UHGV virus genome: UHGV-0075053
Length of the DNA stretch: 26,455 bases
Strand: one strand, 5' to 3'
From: a virus
In this document: positions 13,152-24,393 of the stretch, one piece after another
How the letters are laid out: each line of letters starts with the position of its first letter
Numbering within the stretch: position 1 is the first letter of the stretch
Made by a program: the position numbers and the translations under genes
The notes under the pieces: model-generated
Seen by the model: the letters and a program-made list of their open reading frames with translations, nothing else
Told to the model about the DNA's origin: nothing
Database searches by the model: none

Positions 13152-13226
<75 letters not shown>

Positions 13227-13342
13227 ATCCTGGAACTCGGCTACCTGATTTTCATTCTGCACTGAATATCGAGAGAAGCTCTCTTTATTCGAGCCGGTAA
13301 GCGAACTTATCGTCTCGGGCTACGCCATCGCGTGGCCGAAAT

Positions 13343-13427
<85 letters not shown>

Positions 13428-13435
13428 GGACTTGA

Positions 13436-13511
<76 letters not shown>

Positions 13512-13513
13512 AC

Positions 13514-13590
13514 TGGACCGCCACCGGGGACTCGAACCTCGCACACTCAACTTAAAGGGTTGACGCTCTTTCCTGATGAGCTAGTGGCGG
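13514..13590 (-). tRNA. atypical tRNA-like gene, anticodon UUU (Lys-like) with unusual anticodon loop CCUUUAA
   Basis: Cloverleaf can be drawn: acceptor CCGCCAC/GTGGCGG, D-arm GCTC/GAGC, anticodon stem TCAAC/GTTGA, T-loop TTCGAGT, 3' CCA; but C at position 33 and an A-C mismatch in the T-stem are non-canonical. Confidence 0.45.
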
Positions 13591-13591
13591 T

Positions 13592-13667
13592 TGGTGGCCC
13601 TTGCTGGATTTGAACCAGCGACCTGGCGATTATGAGTCGCTCGCTCTCACCACTGAGCTAAAGGGCC
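13592..13667 (-). tRNA. tRNA with CAU anticodon, ileX/ileY-like (tRNA-Ile2 type; Met not excluded)
   Basis: Reverse complement GGCCCTTTAGCTCAGTGGTGAGAGCGAGCGACTCATAATCGCCAGGTCGCTGGTTCAAATCCAGCAAGGGCCACCA resembles E. coli ileX from memory. Confidence 0.7.
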
Positions 13668-18345: not shown

Positions 18346-18501
18346 TTACTCCTCAGGTTCGTAAGCTGTGAAGACAGCGACCTCCGTCTGGCCGGTTCGG
18401 ATTCGTACCTCGCAGAGGTCTTTCCTCGTTACCAGTGCCGTCACTATGACGGTTAAACAGATGACGATCAGGGCGATTAACATCGCCTTTTGCTGCTTCA
18501 T
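18346..18501 (-). CDS. hokD: Hok/Gef-family small membrane toxin (HokD/RelF-like)
   Basis: MKQQKAMLIALIVICLTVIVTALVTRKDLCEVRIRTGQTEVAVFTAYEPEE matches E. coli HokD from memory; start set to ATG 18501. Confidence 0.9.
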   Translation of the reverse strand: MKQQKAMLIALIVICLTVIVTALVTRKDLCEVRIRTGQTEVAVFTAYEPEE

Positions 18502-19125
18502 AGCCTGCTTCTCCTTGCCTTTCGGCACGTAAGAGGCTAACCTAGATTTGCCGTTCATAGATTGAGCCTCAGATTAATGTTAAGCGTCTTGCAGGACGCG
18601 TAATGTTAACTGGGGCTTTTCTCTATCTGCCTTTGGTGTTCATGCCTGAGACAGATAGCCTCAAGCACCCGCAGCCATTCTACTTAACTCCCGTTACCTC
18701 GCCAATATAAAATCAATCAGAAAAGCGATCCATAAGAACAACAGCAAGACAATAAATTGCCATTACAGCTGCAATAGCCAGCGCACATTTGAGAACCAGC
18801 ACGACAACCTCCTGTATTGGACGTACACCAGTTCTGATAAATATGAGGCTGTCTCATCATTGATGAGATACAACTATTGGGTATAGTTTCTGTGATTTTG
18901 TTCTGTAGAAATGGAACACAACAACCAGTCACCACCAGCACTTCTTTAAATACGCCAAGTCCGACGCAAGCTAACCTTCTAGTCCGCTTTGAGCGAAAAG
19001 CAGACTGTCACGCGTTGAAGTTAATTGTATTACTTAGATAAACACTATCATTTTCCTGACGTTAAGTTGTATCTTTGATAGGATTAAAAAACGTATAGAT
19101 AGCTTATGCTACTGAGGGAATAAAA

Positions 19126-19935
19126 ATGACGAAAATTAGTGAACGATGGAAGCACAATGGCATTACTGAAGGTTATTGCAATATTTGTGGGAAATATGGC
19201 TTGCTCACAAAAGATCATGTTCCTCCAAAGTGCGCCATAACCTTAGGCCCTGTTTTGCAGAAAACAGTTAGCGAATTTTTTGGTATTCAGGAACCAGTTA
19301 AACCATTAAATGCTAAAAATGGCTCTTATTTCAGAACCATTTGCAGCCACTGTAACAATAAGGTATTAGGTGGGCTCGATGTTGCAATTGAAAATGTAAC
19401 AAAGTCCTTTAAAGAACAGTTAAGTCGATATATGAATGGTATGAATGTATATCCATTCATTAGAATACCTTTTGATAGCATATCTTTCACTAAGGCTATG
19501 ATTGGGCACGTGCTATCAGCAACTTCAGTTGAAGATTGTAAAAAAGAACCCGTAGATAGCCCCTTCTATACACCTTTAAAGGATTATGTTTTGGGTAAAA
19601 ATTCAAGTTTTGAGGAAACTCATGATATTTACTACTGGTTTTACCCACACAGAATGCACATATCCGCTCAAAGTGTAGCATTTATGAACGAAGGACATGT
19701 GGCATTTATTTGTGCTTTACATTTTTTTCCTATCGGTTTTATTATCACAATGAAAAATGAAGGAACATACCCTGCCCACTCTACAAAATTAGAACTTGAG
19801 GATAAATTCCTTACATTTAATATGACCTCTATAAATTATGAGTATACGACATTTCCATTTGTAAATCTTAAGGGAAACCAAATGTATGCGATAAGCAACG
19901 GTCATACTTGTGTGAGTTATCCAATAATTAAGTGA
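19126..19935 (+). CDS. hypothetical protein with N-terminal HNH/His-Me-finger-like motif and ~190-aa C-terminal domain of unknown function
   Basis: CNICGKYGLLTKDHVPPK...CSHCNN resembles the CxxC...DHxxP...CxxCN HNH pattern; GAGGGA RBS; AT-rich coding region; lone gene on the strand opposite its neighbours. Confidence 0.6.
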   Translation: MTKISERWKHNGITEGYCNICGKYGLLTKDHVPPKCAITLGPVLQKTVSEFFGIQEPVKPLNAKNGSYFRTICSHCNNKVLGGLDVAIENVTKSFKEQLSRYMNGMNVYPFIRIPFDSISFTKAMIGHVLSATSVEDCKKEPVDSPFYTPLKDYVLGKNSSFEETHDIYYWFYPHRMHISAQSVAFMNEGHVAFICALHFFPIGFIITMKNEGTYPAHSTKLELEDKFLTFNMTSINYEYTTFPFVNLKGNQMYAISNGHTCVSYPIIK

Positions 19936-20081: not shown

Positions 20082-20504
20082 TCACTTCAATAAATACCGA
20101 ACATCACCCTGATAAAACGACAATATGCGCTGCATAACTTCACTCTTCCGGCACTCGCGACAGATTATGTTCTGACGCCTGTCGTAGCGACGTATTTCTC
20201 CGTCAGGTAATGGCCAGATAAGGTCCGGATCAACCGCAGATGGTTTCTTCAGCTTTGCCCTTGAGAGCTTTTTACGGGCATTTTGCCAGTCCTTACGCGC
20301 CTGTTCAGACGGGAATAACCCGTAACCAGAGTTGTATACATCGCCGCTGGCAACCAGCTCTCTTGCGAGAACGCTCATCAGATATCTTGTCGCACCTGTC
20401 TTGACTTCCAGTTGCCGTAACGTCTCACGCCCACTCTGGCGTACGAGTTCAACAACCTGTCCTTTAATTTTTTCCCGCTCTTCTTGTGTAAAAACTTTTG
20501 CCAC
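20082..20504 (-). CDS. hypothetical protein (140 aa) downstream of the replication gene
   Basis: GTG start at 20504 with AGGAGG RBS 5 nt upstream; no Walker motif, so not a DnaC-type loader. Confidence 0.5.
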   Translation of the reverse strand: MAKVFTQEEREKIKGQVVELVRQSGRETLRQLEVKTGATRYLMSVLARELVASGDVYNSGYGLFPSEQARKDWQNARKKLSRAKLKKPSAVDPDLIWPLPDGEIRRYDRRQNIICRECRKSEVMQRILSFYQGDVRYLLK

Positions 20505-20544: not shown

Positions 20545-21615
20545 TTACCCCCTGAAGCCCGGCGGAATTTCGTTATCCGGTTCAGAAATATGATTCACAC
20601 AACGCTGGTTGTTCGTGCCGCTTACCGGGAGCAACCAGGGGTTCTCAAAATTCCGGTCCGGTCCAAAAAACGTCGTCGCTCGCTGAACAAATTCCGTTCC
20701 CGTTTTCCCGGTAGCCGCCAAGTATCTTGCGTAACGCCTCACGCCATCCAGCATGGCCTCTGGTGGCACCCCCTCGCGTAATCTGGCCTTCCAGGCACTG
20801 AAAGCGGATTTCTTCGGGTTTGCTCCGGCACGCAACGGGTACTCCCGCCAGACCTGTTCGAACGCATCCGGATAATCCACTCGTCCCACAGACAGCCCGG
20901 TGTTTTCCGGGACTACCCGATCGGCTTTCCGCTGAATGGCGGAATCGGCTTCAGGCTGCTGCAGTTGGTGTGATTGCTCCGGCCTTGGGGTCATCACCTG
21001 CTGCACAGCGCCCGAATCGGCTTTCAGCGCATACGCTGAATCGGCTTCCGGTGTCGTGCCTGCTGGCTGACCAGGATTGACGGTCTGAACATCCCCTGCC
21101 TGGTTCGTGGCGTTTTTTACGCCATGGACCATAGTGTTTTGATCTTCTTGATCTGTATCTTTATCTGTATCTTTATCTGTCGTGACTCGTCGTGACATGT
21201 GCGTGACATTTCGTGACGCGCCGTGACAATCGCCATTTTGTTCCCGCTTTCTTTCCCTCTCTCGCTGCGCCCTCTTGCGCTCTGCAGGAGATTTTGCGGT
21301 TTGCGAAATATTGCCGTTGTCCTCTTTAAGCACCTGGCGTTTTTCCCATCCAGTGATTAAATCACCATCAAGTACCCGCCCCTGCATCGTCTGCAAAATT
21401 GAATCAATTACCTCTTCTGTCACGTCGAGCGCACTTGCCAAATCTTCTGTCGTGACATCAATGTGACCTCGCGTGACATTTCGTGACGCGCTCACCAGGA
21501 GGTGGATATACACTGCCATCACTGTTGCAATTGGCTGCCCTGACACCCTGGCAATTGTTCGCCACTTAGGGTCATTTGGCATGTCATGCCATAATCTGAG
21601 CCAGGCGTTAGCCAT
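20545..21615 (-). CDS. phage replication initiation / replisome organiser protein (lambda O-like role)
   Basis: N-terminal domain (ANAWLRLWHDMPNDPKWRTIARVSGQP...) typical of prophage replication proteins from memory; iteron clusters inside the coding sequence; ATG 21615 with strong RBS. Confidence 0.6.
   Translation of the reverse strand: MANAWLRLWHDMPNDPKWRTIARVSGQPIATVMAVYIHLLVSASRNVTRGHIDVTTEDLASALDVTEEVIDSILQTMQGRVLDGDLITGWEKRQVLKEDNGNISQTAKSPAERKRAQRERERKREQNGDCHGASRNVTHMSRRVTTDKDTDKDTDQEDQNTMVHGVKNATNQAGDVQTVNPGQPAGTTPEADSAYALKADSGAVQQVMTPRPEQSHQLQQPEADSAIQRKADRVVPENTGLSVGRVDYPDAFEQVWREYPLRAGANPKKSAFSAWKARLREGVPPEAMLDGVRRYARYLAATGKTGTEFVQRATTFFGPDRNFENPWLLPVSGTNNQRCVNHISEPDNEIPPGFRG
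21151..21230. repeat. iteron cluster 1 inside the replication gene (putative ori)
   Basis: Tandem 12-mer ATCTGTATCTTT x2.5 (21151-21180) followed by five CGTGAC motifs at about 10-bp spacing (21181, 21191, 21202, 21212, 21222). Confidence 0.6.
21451..21490. repeat. iteron cluster 2 inside the replication gene
   Basis: CGTGAC motifs at 21451, 21472, 21482; the 20-mer GCGTGACATTTCGTGACGCG (21471-21490) is an exact copy of 21201-21220. Confidence 0.6.
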
Positions 21616-21686
21616 ACTCACCTCTTCTGATACCGAATCTTTTTACTCACGAGTTGCCGGAAGCGATTCGATATGGCTATTATCAC

Positions 21687-22112: not shown

Positions 22113-22324
22113 GAATCATTCTTTCCTTCGTTCGAGGTGCTATCCTGCTTCTTGTAAAGTTCTGGGTTGTATTTCAATTCACCGTTAGTAATTTCATCCA
22201 GTTCCATTGCGCGAAGTTTGGGAATAACTGCTTTCCACCGCACAACAGCCACATGTGAAATTCCAAGAGCCTCAGCTACTAGTCGCTTTTTTTTGAAATA
22301 GCGCAGAACATCATCTTTGAACAT
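22109..22324 (-). CDS. Cro/YdaS-like HTH regulator
   Basis: 71 aa; HTH-like RLVAEALGISHVAVVRW; divergent from the repressor gene; ATGA overlap with the downstream gene. Confidence 0.6.
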   Translation of the reverse strand: MFKDDVLRYFKKKRLVAEALGISHVAVVRWKAVIPKLRAMELDEITNGELKYNPELYKKQDSTSNEGKNDS

Positions 22325-22353
22325 AAAACTCTCCTGTTATTTCGAGCAGGAGG

Positions 22354-22415
22354 GTAACAATAGTTACATAGCAATGTCAACCATAGCAACATCACTTGGT
22401 AGTAACATTGGTTAC
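22354..22415. promoter_or_regulatory. immunity-region operator sites (GTAAC-N4-GTTAC)
   Basis: GTAACAATAGTTAC (22354-22367) and GTAACATTGGTTAC (22402-22415) between the divergent Cro-like and repressor genes. Confidence 0.55.
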
Positions 22416-23090
22416 ATGAAAAACACTATCAGCGAACGTATTCGGAATCGTCGAAAAGACGTTGGATTAACCCAACAGCAGGTTGCGAAAGCAATCGGCA
22501 TATCTCGTGTATCCGTAACAAAATGGGAAAATGGCTCTTCAAAACCTGACGGTGAGAATTTGCATCTACTGTCAAAATTGCTTTCCAAATCTCCTGAATG
22601 GATTCTTTATGGAAAGGACGGTCACGATAAAACCGATGATCTGCGTCTGAATCAGTATCTTTACATTAGTGACAACATCGCCCGGTTGCCCGTTTTAACG
22701 TGGGAACAGGCTGGTTATTGGGATATGAGTTGTCCAGTAACCGAGATTCCTGGCATTAAGAATTGGGTTGATGTCATGACAAAAACCGCTGAAAACTCTT
22801 TTTTATTGCATGTTGAGGGAGATGCGATGACAAACTCTAACGGCCTCCCAACCATCCCCGATGGATCTACCGTGCTGATCACACCATGCTCAAGTAACAT
22901 TAGAGAACTGGTGGGAAAAATAATCTTAATCCAATTGGAAGGAACGCCAAACGTAACACTAAAAAAAGTTGCGATTGACGGACCAAACATCTATCTGTTG
23001 TCACTGAATCCGCTTTACAAACCCATCGAACTGAATGGTGGTTACACCATTAAAGGTAAAGTTTCACAAATACATCAATACTTAGACTGA
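22416..23090 (+). CDS. CI-like prophage repressor (XRE-type HTH plus S24 LexA-like peptidase domain)
   Basis: N-terminal HTH (GLTQQQVAKAIGISRVSVTKWENG) and C-terminal S24-like domain (EGDAM...LKKV); start at ATG 22416 would be leaderless-like, ATG 22374 is the alternative; ORF-track start 22317 is TTG. Confidence 0.8.
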   Translation: MKNTISERIRNRRKDVGLTQQQVAKAIGISRVSVTKWENGSSKPDGENLHLLSKLLSKSPEWILYGKDGHDKTDDLRLNQYLYISDNIARLPVLTWEQAGYWDMSCPVTEIPGIKNWVDVMTKTAENSFLLHVEGDAMTNSNGLPTIPDGSTVLITPCSSNIRELVGKIILIQLEGTPNVTLKKVAIDGPNIYLLSLNPLYKPIELNGGYTIKGKVSQIHQYLD

Positions 23091-24013: not shown

Positions 24014-24342
24014 TAGCTAACCAACGAAGCTAAGGTTGGTAATTAAGGAGTTCTCCACGGGTGAAGTGGAGTGCGTGCGCCGGACACGGGTGAACATCCG
24101 GCACTGACAGTTTACTGAAAGGATATTTCTCTGAAAAGTCAGAGCATAACGCGAAAGTACACGGAGAAGCTCGTCTCTCTGTACTTTGTCGTTAAATTTA
24201 ATTCGACCGTGCGCTTCCGGTTGTGGCAATCCGCGAAATGGCGCGGCGGTAAGTATGGCGGGGTTATTCCTTCCCCTTGAGGACACCGGGTTGTCAGGCT
24301 GACCATACGCTTAAGTGACAGCCCCGCCACAATATCCATGTG

Positions 24343-24393
24343 TAGTCTTTGGTGGCATCAGTTCTACTCCGTGACTGCTCTGCCGCCCTTTTT
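24343..24393 (+). ncRNA. dicF: DicF small RNA (ends approximate)
   Basis: GGTGGCATCAGTTCTACTCCGTGACTGCTCTGCCGCCCTTTTT matches the 3' part of E. coli DicF including its terminator hairpin (from memory); about 175 nt upstream of dicB. Confidence 0.65.

Follow-up and report, generated by a model that had tools for sequence, protein, structure and literature searches.

A probable replication origin of hexamer arrays and an AT-rich tract inside the initiator gene of a lambdoid Escherichia coli prophage

In bacteriophage lambda, the replication origin lies inside the initiator gene O, where four iterons at gene nucleotides (nt) 349-433 are followed by a purine-rich AT tract, and in Shiga toxin (Stx) phages two extra iterons add 13 residues to the O protein (PMC7466680). 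The origin oriL of phage SPP1 consists of direct repeats (AB boxes) and a DNA unwinding element that are embedded in gene 38 and bound by G38P (PMC5737612, PMC6316719), and the Rep origins of staphylococcal pathogenicity islands (SaPIs) combine penta- or hexanucleotide iterons, present in 6-12 copies in two sets, with an AT-rich region and a winged-helix reader (PMC9371898). Among host proteins, the C-terminal domain of DnaT forms filaments on single-stranded DNA (ssDNA) in the preprimosome (PMC13377028). Here we analysed the virus genome UHGV-0075053, a DNA of 26,455 nucleotides (the window), and its replication initiator gene, in which two arrays of the hexamer GTCACG accompany an AT-rich tract. 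We put the probability at roughly three in four that the arrays and the tract form the origin from which a lambdoid E. coli prophage replicates, contained in the prophage's own initiator gene. As read from the DNA sequence, the initiator itself would be the reader of the arrays, and unwinding of the tract, the mode of helicase recruitment and the role of array A are proposed on the same basis.

Hexamer arrays and AT-rich tract

Because the initiator gene lies on the minus strand, the motif reads GTCACG on the coding strand (CGTGAC on the + strand) and, in gene order, array A comes first and array B second (Table 1). The window contains 19 copies of CGTGAC, compared with 9.7 ± 2.9 expected from 100 dinucleotide-preserving shuffles of the window, none of which reached 19, and nine of these copies fall within about 310 base pairs (bp) at 21181-21487, with no further hexamer cluster anywhere in the 26-kb window. 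A preliminary description of this DNA had reported five CGTGAC motifs at roughly 10-bp spacing next to a tandem 12-mer, and a second cluster 270 bp away that shares an exact 20-mer, both inside one coding sequence, and all of this holds: the spacings of array B are 10/11/10/10 bp, the adjoining 12-mer repeat (family D3) has three units at 21146-21181, the 20-mer occurs exactly twice in the window at a distance of 270 bp with zero occurrences expected, and both clusters lie within the same open reading frame (ORF). The degenerate copy in array A, at 21462-21467, differs from the motif by one mismatch (TGTGAC on the + strand, GTCACA on the coding strand) and restores an 11/10/10-bp phasing.

At the protein level, array A codes for A45-T57 (ASRNVTRGHIDVT), where a helix of the DNA-binding domain ends and a loop leads to helix 2, the inverted hexamer codes for D66-V67-T68, where the putative recognition helix begins, and array B codes for the disordered-linker residues C132-T148 (gene nt 395-441), with the peptide CHGASRNVTHMSRRVTT. 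The DKDTDKDTD peptide that had been ascribed to the first cluster is actually encoded by the 12-mer repeats and the AT tract. A promoter at array B was considered and rejected, as one weak match overlaps the array and the total promoter-scan count was below the shuffle expectation.

The AT-rich tract has a GC content of 0.37, the lowest in the initiator gene, in surroundings of 0.55-0.63, and the 12-mer units lie inside this minimum, abutting array B. At the far end of the tract are two GATC (Dam) sites, at 21141 and 21150, and the + strand of 21141-21162 reads GATCTGTATCTTT, which resembles the 13-mer consensus of oriC (GATCTnTTnTTTT). The GATC-containing, 13-mer-like sequence AAGATAnAGATC was evaluated as a family feature and discarded, since it is restricted to 6 of 52 loci, all of them from Enterobacterales.

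Table 1. Features of the initiator locus; nucleotide positions refer to the window, residue positions (aa) to the initiator protein
Feature	Position	Strand	Description
Replication initiator gene	20545..21621	minus	ORF; 358 codons counted from the first GTG
Array A	21451..21487	minus	GTCACG at + strand 21451, 21472, 21482, plus one degenerate copy
20-mer GCGTGACATTTCGTGACGCG, copy 2	21471..21490		in array A
Inverted hexamer	21419..21424		GTCACG on + strand, CGTGAC on coding strand; 26 bp from array A
Array B	21181..21227	minus	five GTCACG; + strand CGTGAC starts at 21181, 21191, 21202, 21212, 21222
20-mer GCGTGACATTTCGTGACGCG, copy 1	21201..21220		spans two iterons of array B; encodes (A)SRNVT
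AT-rich tract, candidate DNA unwinding element	21120..21180		purine-rich on coding strand; encodes DKDTDKDTDQEDQN
Imperfect 13-pair inverted repeat	21101..21131		just past the AT tract; TGGTTCGTGGCGT/ACGCCATGGACCA
cI-type repressor	22317-23090		divergent from the initiator operon; S24 peptidase and helix-turn-helix
Initiator N-terminal module (predicted)	aa 1-~130		winged-helix-like, origin-binding
Initiator linker	aa 133-245		disordered
Initiator C-terminal side	aa 251-318		helical module, then DnaT-like C-terminal tail

A homologue search with the N-terminal 170 residues of the initiator returned 1160 proteins, the alignment of which revealed a strongly conserved N-terminal module (N-module) joined to exchangeable C-terminal modules (C-modules), many of them the C-terminal ssDNA-binding domain of DnaT. 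We compared 49 homologous loci from other species and analysed 20 GTCACG loci, from gamma- and beta-proteobacteria, in detail. Both GTCACG arrays occupy the same gene positions in about 24 of the 49 loci, over a GC range of 0.34-0.69 and in Escherichia, Serratia, Rahnella, Pseudomonas, Bordetella, Acidovorax, Chromobacterium, Pseudothauera and Entomomonas, among others. Within the detailed set, 17 loci have their array-A copies at 0-based gene offsets 134/144/154/165, two others have them at 144/154/165, and in Escherichia albertii (L003) a 21-bp insertion shifts the last two copies 21 nt further along; the 10/10/11-bp pattern is kept in 20/20 loci and the gene offsets are identical in 19/20. 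The place homologous to array B holds three to five hexamers in each of the 20 loci, and 113 of the 116 hexamer intervals measure 10 or 11 bp (85 of 10 bp, 28 of 11 bp). In addition, an inverted hexamer is found at the equivalent position in about half of the loci of the GTCACG class.

Codon usage was compared at conserved four- or sixfold-degenerate residues (majority residue in at least 17 of the 20 sequences), where the top codon accounts for a fraction of 0.95 in the 10 iteron columns versus 0.45 in the 37 other columns (Mann-Whitney p = 2e-6). In array A, the codons GTC, ACG, GGT and CAC are each used in 20/20 sequences and TCA in 19/20, and in array B both TCA and GTC reach 20/20, while the invariant Arg, Leu, Pro and Thr residues of the flanks use four to six codons freely. 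For the inverted hexamer, Val is encoded by GTG in 18/18 and Asp by GAC in 14/20 of the sequences that have the majority residue. Judging from this codon usage, the hexamers are under selection at the DNA level. It is hence barely credible that the repeats are a mere by-product of a repeated or conserved peptide (SRNVT, VTT, DKD), or of chance. The family does conserve the peptides ASRNVTRGHxDVT and CHxESRNVTTDKD, and the two copies of the 20-mer are translated in one frame into one and the same peptide. Yet the motif occurs in three frames (tgT CAC Gg, gcG TCA CGa and aat GTC ACG), its synonymous positions are frozen inside the motif only, the AT tract is retained in another frame, and chance is excluded by shuffling.

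The AT tract itself is tied to array B by a fixed junction, as AGAT(A/T) begins exactly 2 nt past the last array-B hexamer in 20/20 loci. Inside the tract, Asp is encoded by GAT in 64 of 68 cases (83 of 164 elsewhere in the compared loci) and Lys by AAA in 63 of 71 (40 of 92 elsewhere), and several loci read the same AGATAAGAGAAGA-type DNA in another frame, giving QIREE or LDKIREE rather than DKDK. By these counts, the tract is constrained as DNA and its AT-richness is selected. Beyond it, the inverted repeat folds with z = -3.1, none of 200 shuffles folding as well, and hairpins of unrelated sequence recur at that place in the relatives (mean z -1.68 versus -0.85 for the control, paired p = 3e-4). 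Although suggestive only, these folds would make the repeat a possible third origin element. A palindrome is similarly placed beside the AT-rich region of lambda.

Iteron classes and module exchange

When hexamers were counted de novo in the two arrays separately, the same top hexamer was obtained for both arrays of each genome. The hexamers seem to define three specificity classes, namely GTCACG (at least 22 loci), GTAACG (four loci, from Pantoea, Enterobacter hormaechei, Marinobacter and Sphingomonas) and (C)GAACGC (about 11 loci, from Janthinobacterium, Massilia, Collimonas, Acidovorax and several metagenome-assembled genomes, MAGs). The loci with GTAACG or GAACGC are more diverged homologues, in which GTCACG is missing. 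A fourth class, TACGTA (L039 and L049), was rejected, as TAC GTA there encodes a Tyr-Val-rich peptide (YYVYFV...) and a matching array A is missing. On a tree built from the N-terminal domain minus the iteron-encoded residues, the GAACGC loci form a clade, inside which one GTAACG locus (L037) and five loci without recognisable arrays are nested, and GTAACG arose independently at least three times, in both arrays each time. Erwinia, of the GTCACG class, differs from its sisters Pantoea and Enterobacter, of the GTAACG class, by a single base at roughly ten sites each. The hexamer GTAACG is absent from the frame G-TAA-CG, where it is unusable since TAA is a stop codon.

Given that the sites double as codons of the DNA-binding domain, iterons cannot change specificity without altering the initiator. 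At residue 53, loci with GTCACG have His, those with GTAACG Asn and those with GAACGC Arg, and in one subclade the iteron within the putative recognition-helix codons switches His to Asn along with the C-to-A change. It is conceivable, but quite unlikely, that this dual coding, in which the same nucleotides act as binding sites and as codons of the DNA-binding domain, couples the origin to its reader. If the forced residues contributed to the recognition of bases, one step would switch the site and its reader together, and such a coupling would by itself open the way to new replication specificities, as well as to co-resident prophages becoming incompatible or firing each other's origins.

The Stx phage 75/02 shares its C-module with the window (82% nucleotide identity), and it has an unrelated N-module and no GTCACG array; the iterons thus follow the N-module and not the C-module. 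This case also bears on whether the motif might work in the transcript, either through GUCACG sites recognised by an RNA-binding regulator or through mRNA structure, or might be read by a host factor, both of which we consider very unlikely. On the coding strand, almost every copy is a direct repeat, and GUCACG could pair with the inverted CGUGAC (repeat I4), as an action on RNA would have it, but the RNA folds of the two arrays are not more stable than those of shuffles (z = +0.13 and -0.49), the period of 10-11 nt is the helical repeat of DNA, the conserved inverted copy would be a different sequence on RNA, and the arrays vanish upon the swap of the N-module. An Rfam search gave no match at the locus. 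As for a host factor, one Entomomonas MAG carries a locus with full GTCACG arrays (L005) as well as a homologue without full arrays (L030), so that the arrays belong to the element and not to the host. The same pair indicates that elements of different iteron classes can share one host.

Copy number also varies, as E. coli and E. albertii variants differ by 21-bp insertions (seven codons, two iterons) in either array. Some homologues (L028, L030 and L038) have array B and the AT tract but no array A, whereas none of the compared loci has array A only, which points to array B and the AT tract as the core. The origin core would thus comprise array B and the AT tract, possibly with the hairpin, and array A would be a putative second initiator-binding array. 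A beta-proteobacterial MAG (Day6-1_bin-090) contains four homologues of the N-terminal domain (L041, L042, L045 and L048) with neither hexamer array nor AT tract, where the contigs of L045 and L048 stop before the array-B position and L041 and L042 have at that position GC-rich DNA encoding a Val/Pro-rich (VPVP) peptide, with a short GTGCCC tandem in L041. The origin of these homologues, if any, must be organised differently.

The arrays might instead bind the initiator or another phage protein for regulation (autoregulation, transcription block or handcuffing), with the true origin elsewhere, which we regard as unlikely for the locus as a whole; a regulatory role for array A alone is plausible. 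Array A lies early in the coding region and far from any AT-rich tract, its spacing from array B is variable, and it is missing in some homologues and is thus dispensable for the core function. Moreover, the second binding region of SPP1 G38P (oriR) may stall forks rather than fire (PMC3485210). On the other hand, array B is joined to the DNA-constrained AT tract by an invariant 2-nt junction in 20/20 loci and takes the same relative position as the lambda iterons and their AT tract, there is no other hexamer cluster in the window, and regulation leaves the AT tract and the recurrent hairpin unexplained. The earlier interpretation of the hexamers as iterons is supported by the three reading frames, the frozen synonymous sites, the matched hexamer class in both arrays and the joint change with the N-module.

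The initiator and the proposed origin

If the locus is the origin, the N-terminal, winged-helix-like 'replisome organizer' domain of the initiator would bind the GTCACG hexamers, and the arrangement of one hexamer per helical turn (10-11 bp) suggests that the monomers are aligned on one face of the DNA. The initiator would oligomerise on array B and open the purine-skewed AT tract across the fixed 2-nt junction, with the hairpin-forming inverted repeat coming after the tract, and the C-module would then bring in the helicase; as the prophage lacks a loader gene, host DnaB-DnaC would presumably be used. Array A, with four direct sites and one inverted site (21419-21487) located 230-270 bp upstream, would represent a second array for the same protein, and might work together with array B through looping, serve in autoregulation, or stop transcription from passing through the gene.

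Several observations weigh against this proposal. The distance from the last hexamer of array A to the last of array B ranges from 249 to 270 bp and is neither constant nor a multiple of 10.5, and a distance so variable and unphased leaves a fixed looped geometry unsupported. Neither a helicase loader nor a helicase gene was found in the early operon of the prophage, which renders the helicase-loading step speculative here. Since the sites are part of the initiator gene, they are bound to be inherited together with the protein; a common reader would be argued by the concerted switching of the two arrays and by the module-swap case, not by linkage, and gene conversion between the arrays could contribute to their concerted change. 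A fold search of the AlphaFold model against the PDB gave non-significant winged-helix matches only (E > 0.6), to regulators such as MepR/MarR and CAP, and the winged-helix assignment is hence drawn from the secondary-structure pattern only. The initiator's match to PF09681 is below the gathering score (16.5 bits versus 23.3, E 0.0089). Finally, full-text literature searches found no binding or replication experiment for this initiator family, and no published origin for it was found in the searchable literature.

In the AlphaFold model, the initiator has a confident N-terminal domain (residues 1-99) in the helix-loop-helix-helix-hairpin order that winged-helix DNA binders typically show, then a basic helix (112-129), disorder over residues 133-245 and a helical C-terminal domain (251-318). 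Array B and the AT tract code for the start of the disordered linker and array A for a loop, so that in the model the arrays would be placed in the most constraint-tolerant parts of the protein. A Pfam search with the initiator at default thresholds gave no match, and in a relaxed search the N-terminal 130 residues aligned to model positions 1-119 of the 121 of PF09681 (Phage_rep_org_N, the domain of SPP1 G38P). In addition, PHROG 'replisome organizer' families match the initiator (E 5.6e-6 and 2e-4). The initiator is probably of the replisome organizer type, with an N-terminal domain that may be regarded as a marginal member of the G38P domain family. Homology to lambda O was rejected, as PF04492 was not matched even at E <= 10 and the hhalign profile comparison gave a probability of 0.1%.

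The final 13 residues of the initiator (SEPDNEIPPGFRG) are a near-copy of the C-terminal tail of E. coli DnaT (SEPDNHIPPGFRG), and the match to NF002770 is confined to the last 24 residues (19 bits versus a cut-off of 201). The C-module as a DnaT domain was likewise rejected, with no PF17948 match and NF002770 matching on the tail only. Together, the DnaT-like tail and the lack of a loader gene hint at a direct use of host primosome partners. The gene has a second repeat system at 20920-21051, with four copies of (A)AGCCGAT on the coding strand, arranged in two 36-nt units 96 bp apart that encode PEADSA/KADS peptides and each enclose a short palindrome (CCGC..GCGG; TCAGCG..CGCTGA). These repeats, which may be a DNA element or simply a duplicated peptide, are part of the C-module, as the corresponding region of the gene in Stx phage 75/02 has copies, too.

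The start of the initiator gene is probably the ATG at codon 3 (21615), and the annotation of the same gene in phage Tritos is 6 nt shorter, with the proteins of relatives beginning MAN. Along transcription, a divergent cI-type repressor, a P22-Cro-type gene and a cII-like/YdaT-like gene come before the initiator and a DUF977/Ren-like gene after it, with a DUF968/HNH-type gene, rusA, a Q-type antiterminator and lysis genes farther downstream; this is the lambda immunity-replication layout, with the initiator in the position of O. Downstream of the initiator, relatives have a lambda-P-type loader (PF06992), a DnaC/IstB-type AAA+ loader or a DnaB-type helicase, the P-type gene coming next in the E. 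albertii homologue, and this combination of an initiator with loader or helicase neighbours is the classic initiator-plus-loader module. The gene directly after the initiator in the window (20082-20504) is DUF977/Ren-like, where relatives have lambda-P-like, DnaC-like or DnaB-like genes. The preliminary description had named the gene a replication initiator, a naming upheld by an end-to-end match to PHROG 3729, 'replication initiation protein' (E 4e-255), by the lambda O position and by the loader or helicase genes downstream in relatives.

The window DNA is 98-99% identical to the E. coli temperate phages Tritos, Evi and vB_EcoS-689R5, the records of which name the initiator gene 'protein O', 'primosomal protein I' or 'replisome organiser'. 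Between the replication genes and a hok/sok locus, an ORF of 269 residues with paired CxxC motifs lies on the opposite strand (19126-19935, +); its sole match is PHROG 21495, of unknown function, with none in Pfam or NCBIfam, and it resembles a moron. The sok antitoxin RNA (18496-18670, -; Rfam RF01794, 110 bits) marks a hok/sok-type toxin-antitoxin locus downstream of the replication region, and HokD is annotated at the equivalent place in phage Tritos. Five tRNA genes are clustered in the late-regulatory region of the prophage (13155-13667, -). The antisense small RNA DicF is encoded on the cI side of the immunity region (24337-24388, +; Rfam RF00039, 58 bits); DicF is a known inhibitor of ftsZ and has the same placement in Qin-like prophages.

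The initiator module is present in 2078 of 5426 (38%) complete E. coli genomes, in up to four copies per genome, as well as in O157:H7 prophages, Pseudomonas, Aeromonas and many beta- and gamma-proteobacterial prophages, and it is usually annotated as 'hypothetical protein' or with the misnomer 'protein O'. A search for a small replicon relying on the initiator gene alone returned large plasmids, chromosomes filed as plasmids and two P. aeruginosa records of about 51 kb that resemble phage genomes. For annotation from sequence, the origin signature would be (GTCACG N4-5) three to five times, NN, and AGATAAAGATA. Co-resident prophages of the same class are predicted to be able to fire each other's origins, and with up to four copies of the same N-module per E. 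coli genome, cross-activation or incompatibility is possible. The three classes may also represent a natural series for the evolution of initiator-origin specificity when the sites also encode protein.

Comparison with known systems

The suggestion that the locus is a lambda-like origin within a gene is supported by gene position and the placement of the AT tract, with the reservations that the initiator is not a homologue of lambda O and the hexamers are not 18-bp iterons. As in lambda, the origin would lie within the initiator gene of a pR operon, after cro and cII, with a repeat array about one third into the gene (nt 349-433 in lambda, 395-441 here) that is directly followed, in gene direction, by a purine-rich AT tract, both of them encoding an inter-domain linker. 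The proteins are similarly modular, in that the N-terminal part binds DNA and the C-terminal part, which can be exchanged, binds partners, and changes in iteron number add residues to the initiator, as in lambda and Stx phages. However, there is no detectable sequence homology between this initiator and O, and the annotated lambda iterons are 18 bp long and about 20-24 bp apart, whereas the present cores are direct 6-bp repeats every 10-11 bp; iterons of the lambda type, of about 18-19 bp, have an internal dyad symmetry that the hexamers of the window lack. Furthermore, the second array, within the codons of the DNA-binding domain, has no lambda counterpart, and no P-type loader follows the initiator of the window, although the E. 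albertii relative has one.

With SPP1, the locus shares direct repeats beside an AT-rich tract within the organizer's own gene, and NCBI names proteins of the window type 'phage replisome organizer'. G38P, too, has a second, distant binding region (oriR), but oriR is about 13 kb away in circular SPP1, while array A is 230-270 bp away in the same gene. The hosts here are proteobacterial, the C-modules differ (DnaT-like and others), and genes of the G39P/G40P type are absent from this prophage. The SaPI origins are similar in having short iterons in two sets and an AT-rich region, yet their iterons lie downstream of rep and not inside the initiator gene, and they flank the AT-rich region on both sides in opposite directions, whereas the AT tract here is on one side of array B. 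In addition, the SaPI reader is a self-loading helicase, while the initiator of the window has no ATPase domain.

In many family members, P0013 and P0027 among them, the C-terminal ssDNA-binding domain of DnaT (PF17948) is present, and the family profile matches the DnaT structures 6aep, 2ru8 and 9zbt (E 6e-9 to 1e-7). The window protein resembles DnaT in the tail in which it ends but differs in its C-module, which is not a DnaT domain, and to our knowledge DnaT has no sequence-specific origin-binding domain. The alpha protein of phage P4 binds short direct-repeat iterons in two clusters, ori and crr, but several kilobases separate the two, the alpha protein is a primase-helicase, and its sites are not known to lie within the codons of its DNA-binding domain.

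Origins made of iterons and an AT tract inside an initiator gene are thus of a textbook kind, and the present finding is useful rather than surprising. What appears to set this locus apart from its precedents is the arrangement of one hexamer per helical turn, the presence of a second array that overlaps the codons of the DNA-binding domain, the existence of three iteron classes, and the visible constraints of dual coding, as in the frame from which GTAACG is missing.

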